Positions 466 to 11,579 of a stretch of DNA of 64,000 nt are shown here, in pieces (the first letter of the stretch is position 1; each line of letters begins with the position of its first letter). The DNA is from an uncultured Methylomirabilota bacterium (lineage in GTDB: Bacteria; Methylomirabilota; Methylomirabilia; Methylomirabilales; 2-02-FULL-66-22). The notes under the pieces are model-generated. The model was not told the DNA's origin. It did not search any database and was given only the letters and a program-made list of their open reading frames with translations. The translations under genes and the position numbers were made by a program. The stretch lies in NCBI GenBank assembly GCA_963705305.1, contig OY970067.1, positions 4,384,001 through 4,448,000 of the forward strand. Direction: 5' to 3'.

Positions 466-494
466 GGGGGACGTTGCGACATTATTGACTTTAT
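466..494. repeat. Array site copy 2 (GGGGGACGTTGCGACATTATTGACTTTAT)
   Basis: Near-identical to 8688-8716 and to the IS110-split copy. Confidence 0.9.
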
Positions 495-971: not shown

Positions 972-1365
972 GCGCCACCTGCTCGAGGTAGTAGCGATAC
1001 CTATGGCGGAAATCCTCAAACGCCTTCGCCGTCCGGTACGCCAACTCGTACAGGGCCTCCTCGTCCCGGCTGTACAGTACCCGGCCCTCCCGGAGAACGC
1101 GACGGCGAATGTAGAGCGGAAGCTGCTGGAAGACGCGAATGTCGAATCCTTCGGGTGTGGTCGCCAAGTACTCCAAACGCACCTCGGCTGCCGCAGCCCC
1201 CGTCCCACTGGTCCGGCATGGGTCGAGGACCAGGCAGACGTCCACATCCGAGCGGGGCCCCTGCTCTCCCCGGACACGGCTTCCGAAGAGCACCACCGCC
1301 AACAGGCGCGTGTCCGCTGCCGCTTTTTTGAGAAGGTTGTCGATCGAGGCGCTGTCAGACGTCAT
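958..1365 (-). CDS. mntA: MNT antitoxin (MntA-like)
   Basis: LFGSRVRGEQGPRSDVDV motif; coupled to HEPN gene. Confidence 0.9.
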   Translation of the reverse strand: MTSDSASIDNLLKKAAADTRLLAVVLFGSRVRGEQGPRSDVDVCLVLDPCRTSGTGAAAAEVRLEYLATTPEGFDIRVFQQLPLYIRRRVLREGRVLYSRDEEALYELAYRTAKAFEDFRHRYRYYLEQVAHAGS

Positions 1366-1489
1366 CTGGACCAGATAGGGGACCCGGCCGTTTCTGCGCT
1401 GTCAAGGCACATTCCTCCTCGCGATGCCGAGTCCTGAACGCATCTCACACCTGCTGCCTGCCGTCGTTCCCCCGGGACCGCTCCCGGAT

Positions 1490-1680
1490 GGTCTCTCACG
1501 CCCCACCGTAGTGGTCGCATCCGGCCTGCTCGCTGCCACCCGAGCGGCCTACCCGGCCTCGTCCGGGCTGCTGAGAGCGGGAGCGGCGCGCCAGGGTCCC
1601 CCGGCGGTCCCACCGGGCCGCCACGTTGCATGAATCGCGCTGCCAGCTCCCCGGGGAAGACAGACGCTGTCCCGCCGGCC
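1490..1680 (-). ncRNA. Predicted IS110 bridge/seek RNA with target- and donor-binding loops
   Basis: Two stem/internal-loop/stem domains; guides GCAACGT and GGGGGAC match the target site; GGCCGGGT and ACTAC match the element end junction. Confidence 0.8.
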
Positions 1681-1683
1681 GGC

Positions 1684-2889
1684 TCAGCGGACCTGCCGCT
1701 GGAGCCCGCCCGTCCGGCGTGGGTCGTACGGGGTCCCGCTCCGCCACACGCCCCAGACGACCCGGAGCACTTTCGCCGCCAGTTCGACGATCGCCTTGAA
1801 GCCAGCGAAGCGGTCCCCCTGGCGCTTCGCTTTCAAGGCGGCGAGCCGGGCCCGCCCCGCGGCGGTCCGCGCCAGTCCCAGCGCCGCGTGGTACAGCGCC
1901 CAACGCAGAAGGCTGCGCCCGCACTTGGAGATTCGCGCCTGCCCCGCGAACTGCCCGGATTGCACCCGCACGATGTCCAGCCCCGCGAGCTTCCGGAGCT
2001 GGGAGAACTTCGTGAACCAGGCGATGTCCCCGATCTCGGCCAGGAGGATCGCGGCCACGGTCGGCCCGACCCCCGGGATCGTCCGGAGGAGCGCGTAGGC
2101 CGGGAGCCGCTCGGCGAGGGGCGTCAGGGCCTGCTCGACCGCGGCGGTGCGGGCCTGAACAGCATCGACCTGGGCCCCGAGGTCCGCACAGGCCGTGGCG
2201 AGCCCGACCGGCAGCCGTCCCTTCGCCACCGCTGGGCGCCCGGGGGCCGCCGGCTCCCAGGCCTGGAGCACCGCCGGCAGCTCCGCCCGCAGGCGGTTGG
2301 GCAGGGGCTCCCCCATCGGCCCGAGGGCCGGGCGGAGGGTCGTGCGCCAGCGCGCCTTGCAGGCCGCCAGCTCGCTCCGGGCCCGGCGGAGGCACTTGAC
2401 CAAGTGCCGCAACTCGACGCGGGGGCCATCGGGCCGGCTGTAGAACAGCACCTTCCCCTGTTCGAGGAGGTCGGCGCAGTTGGCGGCGTCCTTCCGGTCG
2501 CCCTTGTCCCAGGTCCCGTCCTGGGTCCGGCGGTTCCAGTAGGCCACGCTGCTGGAGAACAGGACGACGTCGGCGCCCTGCGTCTCCAGGAACACCGCGA
2601 GGGCCTGGTGGTAGGTCCCCGTGGGCTCGAGGCCACAGACCACCTCGCGGCACCCGGTGCTCCGCTGGGCCTGCTGGATCCGCGCCCAGAGCTGGGCGAA
2701 GCCCCGGGTGGTGTTCGGGATCGTGAGGGTGGGCACGACCACCCGGGTGTGGGCCTGCCGGAGGTGCACCACGTGTTCGACTTGGGCGACGTCGATCCCG
2801 ACCAGGAGGCGCTGGCGGTTGATGCGTAAGGTGGCCTTCAGCTCCCGGAACCGCTTGACACGCGTGGCATTGTCTCGCATCGTAGCCAT
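1684..2889 (-). CDS. IS110-family transposase (bridge recombinase)
   Basis: RuvC-like DEDD residues (GIDVA, LEPTG, KGDRKDA), IPGVGP, C-terminal VQSGQ...ISKCG..LRWAL. Confidence 0.95.
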   Translation of the reverse strand: MATMRDNATRVKRFRELKATLRINRQRLLVGIDVAQVEHVVHLRQAHTRVVVPTLTIPNTTRGFAQLWARIQQAQRSTGCREVVCGLEPTGTYHQALAVFLETQGADVVLFSSSVAYWNRRTQDGTWDKGDRKDAANCADLLEQGKVLFYSRPDGPRVELRHLVKCLRRARSELAACKARWRTTLRPALGPMGEPLPNRLRAELPAVLQAWEPAAPGRPAVAKGRLPVGLATACADLGAQVDAVQARTAAVEQALTPLAERLPAYALLRTIPGVGPTVAAILLAEIGDIAWFTKFSQLRKLAGLDIVRVQSGQFAGQARISKCGRSLLRWALYHAALGLARTAAGRARLAALKAKRQGDRFAGFKAIVELAAKVLRVVWGVWRSGTPYDPRRTGGLQRQVR

Positions 2890-3275
2890 GGGGTTCTTCC
2901 TCCTCTGTACGGGGTGAGTGGATGGCTCTCTGCACACCCCTACCAATAGCGAGGAAGAACCCCTTTTGGAACCTGCCATTTTCACCAGAAGGGGCCCAGA
3001 CTGTGGGAGTCTAGTCGCTGGTACCTGGTTCATGCGGGTAATACTACGCTGCGACATTATTGACCGTATTCTGGAGCATAGGGCGCAGGGCATGGCGAGG
3101 GCCTACGGCCCGAGAGAGGCGCGAGGCGGCCGGAGCGATCGCAAGCGCACCATTTCGAAGATCGAAATTGAAAGAGCTTGTCGTGGCGATCTTTGCGTGA
3201 GGCATCGGGCCCGTTCCTCATGCCACTTGGCACGAGAACCACGGAGGCGGCTGCGACGCCCAGGGCCCGACGCAT

Positions 3276-5488: not shown

Positions 5489-5552
5489 CCTCCGGCCCGG
5501 GTTCCACCCCGTAGGGGCTCCACCCCGGAGGGAGGGCCTACGGCCCGGAGGG
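5489..5552. repeat. Palindromic CCTCCGG...CCGGAGG element (family G); other copies 14686-14717, 16334-16396, 20789-20851, 22941-23019, 31736-31802, 32932-32995
   Basis: Seven near-identical copies with CCTCCGG/CCGGAGG ends and internal CGTAGG/CCTACG. Confidence 0.9.
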
Positions 5553-5756
5553 TGGTCAGTGGTCCTGCAATCCACCTTCCTATTCGACTTTCCATTGCGC
5601 CCCTTGCGTGAGAAAAGCCCGACTCCGGTCTCACGCCAAGATCGCAAAGCTCGCCAAGAAGGGCCCTCGTAAATCTCGAACACAACTGTGAACGTTGTTG
5701 ACTGTGTTGACTCGCGATTTGGAGGCAACGCCGTCGCCGTCCAACGACTGCACGAG

Positions 5757-6795: not shown

Positions 6796-6934
6796 GCGAA
6801 GCGCACGGGGCAAAGCGCAGAGGGCATGGCGCAAAAACCGGTGGTCAGAGGTCGGAACGTCGGTGGTCAGGAGTCAGCTTGCGTCTGAAGGCTGACACCT
6901 GATTCCTGGAACTGGCGATCTCTGGATAGAAACA

Positions 6935-8716: not shown

Positions 8717-8882
8717 TGTGGGGCACAGGGCAGAGGGCACAGAGCATAGCGCGAAGGGCGAAGGGAAAGTCGGAATTGGAATTTCGAAGTTCGAAATGAA
8801 GAACTCTTGCCTCGCGCCAAGATCGCCAAGACAAGCATCCCAGAGGTTCGGGCCCCTGATCCGATATGTGGGACATGGAGGC

Positions 8883-9266: not shown

Positions 9267-9387
9267 CGGCTACTCCCGATCGCACAGGGCATGGGGCAGA
9301 GGGCAAAGGGCATAGCGCGAAGGGCAGAGAGCGCGGACCACGGGACCACTGACCACCGACTCCCGGCACTTAGGGGATTACCCCGCA

Positions 9388-10216: not shown

Positions 10217-10450
10217 GATACCCTTGCGGCGCAGGGCAGAGGGCAAAGAGCAAAGACCAGGGATCAGGGGTCAGGAATCAGTGGTCAGAGGTCAGGATGT
10301 CAGGCGTCAGCCTCCAGACAGGGTTGCTCTACTTTGCGTGCTTTGCGTGAGGAGAGCTCGGACCTAGTCTCACGCTCAGATCGCTAAGCTCGCCAAGAAG
10401 GCCCCTTTTCACTTTCGAAGTTCGAATTTCGCATTTCGAATTTGCTCTCG

Positions 10451-11194: not shown

Positions 11195-11579
11195 GCTGGT
11201 GACTCCCTTGTCATTGGCAACCTAGGAACATAGGCGAGGAACACTGCCTCACGCCAAGATCGCCAAGCACGCCAAGAAGAACCTTCCTACTATTCGAATT
11301 CCCGGACCGAATCTGGTCTCACGCAAAGATCGCCAAGATCGCAAAGGAGAACCCTTCAGTTTCGAAATTCGAACTTCGAAATTCGAATTTTCCCCGGCAA
11401 CCTTTGCGGCTTTGCGTGAAAAATTCGGGCCGTGTCCCACGCCGGCCTCGCCGCACCGCGTCGATGGGGGTCAGGCCTTGATAATTTGCTTTCTCGATTG
11501 CGTTCCGCGAGCGGGTGAGAGCCAGCCAATACGGCTCAAGAGATCGGGTAGGCCACGGAACACAGAGGGAAATCCGCAT

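Follow-up and report, generated by a model that had tools for sequence, protein, structure and literature searches.

The DNA considered here is a 64,000-nucleotide window (the whole stretch that was analysed) from the genome of an uncultured Methylomirabilota bacterium (contig OY970067.1, positions 4,384,001 to 4,448,000 of the forward strand). Single copies of a repeat lie just upstream of MNT-HEPN toxin-antitoxin (TA) operons in this window, at positions 427, 467, 6767, 7812 and 8689, and a further copy is interrupted by an IS110-family insertion sequence, which occupies 1383-3047 on the minus strand and is 1,665 bp long when one copy of its GT core is counted. The element is made of a left non-coding end of 158 nt, a gene for a 401-amino-acid recombinase and a right non-coding end of 301 nt (1383-1683), and the guide-bearing structure described below lies in the latter, 3' of the stop codon. 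Since only 16 nt separate the right end of the element from the start codon of MNT downstream of it (1365), the MNT-HEPN operon (1365-549) is now separated by 1.66 kb from the repeat and from its upstream DNA. The analysis makes it very probable that this IS110-family element chooses its target via an RNA that its own right end encodes.

The host genome (G000; 5.65 Mb in one contig, 66% G+C) was searched for further copies of the element. Three intact copies were recovered, 100% identical over query positions 1-1665 and with identical ends, namely the window copy (A) and copies B and C at 2109485-2111149 and 5100680-5102344, together with a fourth, decayed copy (D) of 82% identity and several fragments. 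A preliminary description of this locus, made from the window sequence, had placed the element at 1384-3047; the element itself was correctly recognised and its start was wrong by one base, because the identity of the three copies over the whole query sets it at 1383. Read in element orientation, the junctions are GTCGCAGC-GT-AGTATT ... ACGGCCGG-GT-CCCCTATCTGG for copy A, AAACTTGCAGC-GT- ... -GT-CCCCTATT for copies B and C and GTCGCAAC-GT- ... -GT-CCCCTATTCATGG for copy D. The GT dinucleotide is thus present at both junctions in all four copies, and the flanks of the three intact copies share only GCAGC-GT ... GT-CCCCTAT, the remainder being unrelated; the ends of the element are therefore exact, with GT at both junctions. 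Given the window junctions GCAGC-GT-AGTATT and ACGGCCGG-GT-CCCCTAT, excision leaving a single GT restores a copy of the site found in the TA array, in agreement with the preliminary description, which had also taken GT as the shared core. No terminal inverted repeats were found at the element ends. Subterminal inverted repeats, which the preliminary description had not seen either, were looked for between the first and last 50 nt of 63 complete elements, and none emerged: the longest exact inverted match per element had a mean length of 4.87 nt (maximum 6), and shuffled sequences gave 5.10 nt (maximum 9). No orthologous locus that could represent the pre-insertion allele was found among 40 related genomes, two of which gave short matches of 35-66 nt.

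Two further observations concern the genome as a whole. At G000:C1:4098730-4098782 the element family has left a fifth insertion in a decayed state, a solo right-end tail (GGGGAC and then CCGGCCGTTTCTGCGGTGTCAAGG) to which no body could be assigned. The IS110 model has 16 matches in the genome, from several other lineages.

The assignment of the gene to the IS110 recombinases, already proposed in the preliminary description, agrees with matches to the Pfam families DEDD_Tnp_IS110 (PF01548, E 3.4e-17) and Transposase_20 (PF02371, E 7.8e-22) and to the NCBIfam model NF033542, 'IS110 family RNA-guided transposase', at 210 bits for a cut-off of 140. Residues D33, E88, D131, D134 and S311-G312 are aligned with D11, E60, D102, D105 and S241-G242 of IS621, whose catalytic roles have been described (PMC11208158). 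The N-terminal pairwise alignment to IS621 alone is weak, and the match to the solved structures (IS621 and ISCro4) is significant in the Tnp domain only (E 4e-13). The closest plasmid-borne relatives found by tblastn are at most 31.7% identical and all carry the unnamed label 'IS110 family'.

The RNA region was examined by comparison with related elements, for which 10 loci from genome contigs and the best 80 of 158 from metagenome contigs were collected. These 90 loci yielded 63 complete distinct RNA regions, besides 13 exact duplicates, 9 loci cut by contig ends and 5 unmatched, and copies A (window) and D (decayed) were added to these 63 relatives for an alignment of 65 RNAs. From this alignment RNAalifold proposed the stems that close the first domain as well as the two inner hairpins; with the outer stem of the second domain added, the structure comprised 38 pairs in five helices. 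Over the 65 RNAs, 99.2% of the cells are paired against 93.7% after shuffling, and two-sided changes occur at 15 pairs in 142 cells, the best single pairs showing double changes in 32, 26, 26, 20 and 15 sequences. None of 500 shuffles equalled any of the five fold measures, and slid controls gave at most two doubly changed pairs. The two-domain fold put forward in the preliminary description is consequently well supported, as are its stems GGGAGC/GCTCCC and CTCTCA/TGAGAG and both inner hairpins; its third stem, GCGCG/CGCGC, fits better when shifted by one base, so that GCGC 1637-1640 pairs with GCGC 1588-1591, a register in which a C-G to U-A change is present in 3 of 65 sequences.

Within the two loops of this fold, the segments GCAACGT, GGGGGAC, GGCCGGGT and ACTAC were each found by script exactly once in the 301-nt end, where the preliminary description had located them, and none of 20,000 dinucleotide shuffles of that end contained all four in order. 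Their order and strand polarity agree with the target-loop-then-donor-loop layout of the IS621 bridge RNA (PMC11208160), as had been suggested. The dinucleotides directly 3' of the right guides, CC at 1594-1595 in the target loop and GG at 1506-1507 in the donor loop, stand at the handshake positions of IS621 (PMC13626964), and in the window copy strand exchange would improve their pairing, as reported for IS621. In the window, positions 466-477 read GGGGGACGTTGC, the complement of GCAAC-GT-CCCCC, so that this unoccupied site matches both target guides fully, while the occupied site has one left-guide mismatch and one terminal right-guide mismatch; both statements of the preliminary description stood as made.

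Covariation between guide and target, on which the preliminary description had staked its reading, was observed on both sides of the core. For the left target, 68 distinct pairs of guide and flank gave 189 matches in the 340 cells of positions -3 to -7; shuffling of the partners gave 162.6 +/- 6.9 and came as high in 2 of 10,000 permutations. For the right target, 67 distinct pairs gave 81 matches in the 134 cells of positions 6-7, where shuffling gave 61.7 +/- 3.5 and no permutation of 10,000 was as high (locus L032, whose guide was wrongly extracted, was excluded from these counts). At right position 6, the matching guide letter is present for 11 of the 12 flanks with G. Insertions of relatives in other genomes and in metagenomes are found at the same GCAAC-GT-CCCC-like motif, as had been expected. 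L111, in a genome of the same genus (G020:C6:737381-739042, minus strand; 82% identical overall), is inserted outside the usual repeat at CAGCTTC-GT-GCCCG, and its guides AGCTTC-GU and GGGGC-AC match that site. As judged from these letters, L111 is a natural retargeting event in which both target guides were rewritten to fit another site.

These data bear on two other explanations of the 3' structure. It could be an element that stabilises or terminates the recombinase transcript and plays no part in the choice of site, in keeping with its position directly after the stop codon and with the absence of a promoter of its own. A search of both strands of the integrated element gave no sigma-70-like promoter and no intrinsic terminator, and this lack of a terminator-like site, together with the fact that the unpaired loop letters are precisely those that match the target and donor and that the loops co-vary with the flanks, makes such a role extremely unlikely. 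Alternatively, the recombinase protein itself could read ACGTCCC, the 3' RNA being a mere scaffold or regulatory untranslated region whose guide matches persist through adjacency and the use of a single site. The near-invariance of the target core would fit this alternative, as 65 of 65 distinct right flanks start with GTCCC and 57 of 66 distinct left flanks end in AAC or TAC, and so would conservation of the target beyond the guide, right position 8 being A in 51 of 67 flanks and matched by the guide in 2 of 67; moreover, a preprint on ISPpu10 reports a target-encoded determinant besides base pairing. The variable guide letters nevertheless follow the variable flank letters, L111 has both guides rewritten for an unrelated site, and the four segments have the order and polarity of the tested IS621 RNA, for which reasons recognition by the protein alone is considered very unlikely and guidance by the RNA is preferred.

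Two kinds of variants among the relatives may be recorded beside the guides. The left donor guide reads GGCCGCGU in 4 of 65 RNAs (alignment A2, columns 115-122), and where the element ends of these four were extracted they are GGCCGG-GT, which produces a mismatch at donor position -1. In two independent relatives, L014/L128 and L118, the core is GG at the left junction (GCAAC-GG-AGTAT) and GT at the right one, a pair expected as the product of top-strand exchange 3' of the core had the target core been GG.

The preliminary description had regarded the target as an uncharacterised site of the TA cassette array, and on this point it was mistaken. The target is the conserved outer tip (..RC[A/T]AC-GT-CCC[C/G]..) of a genome-wide repeat and is not special to the array. 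The genome contains 72 GCAACGTCCCC sites and 19 copies of the 12-mer GCAACGTCCCCC, and a looser scan gave 154 [A/T]ACGTCCC sites with an A+T-rich stretch in the 20 nt upstream, a context present at 11% of random positions. About 130 of these 154, as judged by eye, belong to one repeat family, whose constant ..C[A/T]AC-GT-CCC[C/G] tip comes after an inner part that is A+T-rich, variable and marked by a repeated triplet. Outward-facing inverted pairs of the motif, at most 3 kb apart, number 17, and in 11 of them the distance exceeds 600 bp; one of these wide pairs spans 2,235 bp and nests a 1,059-bp unit, and the other ten are units of 1,037-1,217 bp. Each of the ten units holds a RAYT-like frame starting MPR..RLDAPG.LHHV..., and the same inverted ends also bound units of about 197 bp. 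Among three unit proteins scanned, two passed the Pfam Y1_Tnp cut-off and the third, which also has a DnaA-C-like helix-turn-helix, scored 22.4 for a cut-off of 23, while the best NCBIfam match of one unit protein was the REP-associated tyrosine transposase model at 59, below its cut-off of 80. Because ten inverted-pair units each encode a Y1/RAYT-like transposase, the repeat is read as a terminal repeat of the TIRtron type (PMC3733652). With regard to integron attC sites, no palindromic partner for the motif was apparent in the aligned array copies, no integrase search having been made.

Several observations weigh against guidance by the RNA, or limit what the preceding tests can say. The guide/flank permutation tests take no account of how closely the sequences are related. 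Since relatives hardly differ in the target core ACGTCCC, natural variation leaves most of the guide unprobed. The donor guides are likewise nearly invariant (ACUAC, or ACTAC in DNA, in 65 of 65 RNAs and GGCCGGGU, or GGCCGGGT, in 60 of 65), as are the element ends, so that the donor loop rests on sequence match and analogy rather than on covariation. Single-sequence thermodynamic folding in this G+C-rich DNA is no better than in shuffles (z = +0.71 and -0.87). The contigs of four sequencing runs, whose cover is fragmented, contained neither a circle junction nor an empty site, and among the runs listed as containing window 1300-3150 none is recorded as RNA. Finally, the 72 GCAACGTCCCC sites are unoccupied, and all three intact copies are inserted at GCAGC where the guide reads GCAAC, which places an A opposite C at target position -2.

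The base at target -2 is window position 3049, C on the plus strand and hence G in element orientation, and a contig of an independently built assembly that spans 2993-3183 without differences confirms it. Decayed copy D is inserted at GCAAC, as are most relatives, and G at -2 is present in 2 of 64 distinct left flanks of other relatives. In the gtcaataatgtc subfamily of the repeat, to which the window site belongs, the unoccupied copies listed read GCAAC, with ACAAC and GCTAC once each as exceptions; copies B and C belong to a subfamily with two unoccupied relatives, of which one has GCAGC. A wider, 4-bp crossover was ruled out as the cause, since no left junction has GG at -2/-1, and pairing of the handshake dinucleotides (PMC13626964) does not account for it. 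It is possible that the three GCAGC sites are due to chance, and no mechanism considered explains them. A more far-reaching reading has an outside chance of being correct: the lineage would be a distinct architectural branch (right-end bridge RNA, natural GT core, no subterminal repeats) specialising on the repeat tips of Y1 transposons in soil and sediment bacteria, and the consistent A-opposite-C mismatch at -2 in the three intact copies may mark an unrecognised step, such as a base change coupled to insertion or a selection for junctions that the RNA is no longer able to excise.

When the element ends are joined with a single core, TTGACA-17-TAGTAT would be generated in 59 of 63 complete elements, three of the others being without TTGACA and one having GAGTAT; a promoter at the circle junction is known for the IS110 family (PMC11208160, PMC11187229). 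The following cycle is proposed, of which we infer the transcription and processing of the RNA, its binding by the protein, the circle and the catalysis. In the excised circle, the abutted ends would form the TTGACA-17-TAGTAT promoter, from which the recombinase gene would be transcribed together with a 3' extension corresponding to the structured RNA of about 190 nt. This RNA has two stem-closed internal loops, the second of which would present GGCCGG-GU and ACU-AC for pairing with the joined element ends. The RNA-bound DEDD/Ser recombinase would then exchange strands at the shared GT, insertion leaving GT at both junctions and no other duplication. The address would be the terminal inverted repeat that bounds RAYT/TIRYT-like Y1 transposons, at its outer tip; solo copies of this repeat also precede the MNT-HEPN operons.

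Such a cycle could also belong to the past, the RNA and protein having once been functional and the present copies being immobile. There are indeed only three intact copies for 19 perfect 12-mer and 72 11-mer sites that are unoccupied, decayed copies and right-end-only relics are common in the genome and genus, and neither a circle nor an empty site was seen in the contigs of the four runs. On the other side, three unrelated loci hold copies that do not differ at all over 1,665 bp (100% identity), and in each the 401-aa frame is open and no catalytic residue is missing, which indicates recent movement; a dead relic is accordingly judged unlikely. The right-end-only matches, found in several genomes of the same genus (L120, L132, L135 and others), are 270-330 nt long and cover the whole RNA region and the right end. 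No recombinase gene is present upstream in L120, where a peptidase M28 gene is found, or in L132. The possibility that they are RNA-only modules was set aside, as L132 and L135 keep the last recombinase codons and L135 has an internal deletion, so that they look like decayed copies.

Compared with the known systems, the element resembles IS621 (PMC11208160, PMC11208158) in its DEDD RuvC-like domain and its Tnp domain with a Ser-Gly loop, in having a 2-bp core at both junctions with neither terminal repeats nor a longer duplication, and in an RNA where a target loop precedes a donor loop, the left guides having the sense of the top strand, the right guides being complementary to it and the core being included in both. 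Joined ends that would create a promoter and a dispersed, Y1-linked repeat as target (REP for IS621) are further common features. It differs from IS621 in that the RNA lies in the right end after the gene and not upstream in the left end, in its GT instead of CT core, in a 401-aa protein that matches the IS621 sequence in the Tnp domain only, and in an RNA without a match in Rfam 15, where no family reached its gathering score over the whole window and the sole match at E <= 1 on the element was a chance miRNA (E 0.14). The 3'-encoded RNA had led the preliminary description to a comparison with the IS1111 group, which is borne out by the location of the RNA after the stop codon. As in that group, e.g. 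ISEc11 (PMC11187229), the non-coding region downstream of the gene is the longer one, the RNA matches both target strands and a junction promoter is predicted, whereas the subterminal inverted repeat of 7-17 bp that defines the group is absent. For this reason the element is best filed in a minority of the IS110 family noted by Siddiquee et al. 2024 (PMC11187229), namely elements outside IS1111 whose subterminal repeat is short or missing and whose non-coding region is likewise 3' of the gene.

In its choice of a fixed target inside another mobile element it is similar to IS4321/IS5075, which use the 38-bp terminal repeats of the Tn21 family, and to ISEc21, which uses a conserved part of IS3 transposase genes; unlike these, its host is a Y1/HUH (RAYT/TIRYT-like) transposon together with the many solo copies of its terminal repeat, and not a DDE transposon. 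The target is in turn comparable to the TIRtrons/TIRYT and REPtrons/RAYT of Di Nocera et al. 2013 (PMC3733652), in which the inverted repeats on either side of a Y1 transposase gene recur elsewhere as a dispersed repeat family. Its tip GGGGAC.. resembles the GGGGWSAS motif of that paper, GGGGACGT fitting only 6 of 8 positions, and it departs from the TIRtrons and REPtrons described there in that no palindromic REP hairpin was seen and each subfamily has an inner part of its own.

The one literature search made on this lineage, for IS110 elements in Methylomirabilota, returned nothing. The novelty of the system had still been rated too highly in the preliminary description, as right-end RNAs, 3' elements without subterminal repeats and targeting of REP, attC and transposon ends are already in print (PMC11208160, PMC11187229), and the known workings of bridge systems are left unchanged by this element. 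It provides a clean natural example of a compact bridge system (401 aa and about 190 nt, with a GT core and a 3'-encoded RNA) whose fold and guide assignments are unusually well supported by 65 distinct natural variants and what reads as one natural retargeting event, and orthologues of this kind are raw material for work on programmable recombinases. It also illustrates how one transposon family can live on the ends of another, and it corrects the idea that the TA array has a recombination site of its own.

Table 1. Features of the IS110-family element and its surroundings (window coordinates).
Feature	Position	Strand	Basis
Whole insertion sequence	1383..3047	-	Three 100% identical copies
Left (5') junction copy of the GT core, GCAGC-GT-AGTATT	3046..3047	-	Sequence, copy junctions
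Right (3') junction copy of the GT core, GGCCGG-GT-CCCC	1381..1382	-	Sequence, copy junctions
Interrupted target, left half, inner part of the terminal repeat (GCTGCGACATTATTGACCGT...)	3048..3075	+	
Interrupted target, right half, ATAGGGG (CCCCTAT in element orientation)	1373..1380	+	
Recombinase gene, 401 aa, DEDD_Tnp_IS110 and Transposase_20 domains	1684..2889	-	Pfam, NCBIfam, IS621 alignment
Left non-coding end with the 5' leader; 156 nt, or 158 nt when the core is counted	2890..3045	-	
Conserved structured RNA (bridge RNA/seekRNA candidate) inside the right non-coding end	1470..1655	-	Alignment, covariation
Probable target-binding domain; stems 1646-1651/1579-1584 (GGGAGC/GCTCCC), 1642-1644/1585-1587 and 1637-1640/1588-1591, inner hairpin 1615-1621/1604-1611	1579..1651	-	
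Probable donor-binding domain; outer stem 1572-1577/1493-1498 (CTCTCA/TGAGAG), second stem 1565-1568/1500-1503, inner hairpin 1542-1549/1523-1531	1493..1577	-	
Predicted left target guide GCAACGU, sense of left target and core	1623..1629	-	
Predicted right target guide GGGGGAC, complement of GT-CCCCC	1596..1602	-	
Predicted left donor guide GGCCGGGU, identical to right-end terminus and core	1551..1558	-	
Predicted right donor guide ACUAC, complement of GT-AGT at the left-end terminus	1508..1512	-	
Unoccupied site, both target guides matched perfectly	466..477	+	
TTGACA in the right-end tail, putative -35 box once the ends are joined	1399..1404	-	
TAGTAT (core T and start of the left end), putative -10 box once the ends are joined	3041..3046	-	
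Repeat-rich spacers	500-525, 3150-3175, 5540-5680, 6800-6880, 8720-8830, 9280-9345, 10220-10445, 11240-11390		

Two minor observations remain. In the leader of the recombinase gene (2890-3000, minus strand), GGGGTTCTTCCTC is complementary to GAGGAAGAACCCC, which stands directly before the ATG and covers the Shine-Dalgarno region; a consensus fold failed to recover this complementarity, which is kept among relatives with other letters. The spacers of the TA cassettes are rich in short tandem and dispersed repeats, which include GGGCAGA-like heptamers, TTCGAAnT units, CAGTGGTCAG units and CTCACGCCAAGATCGCCAAG.

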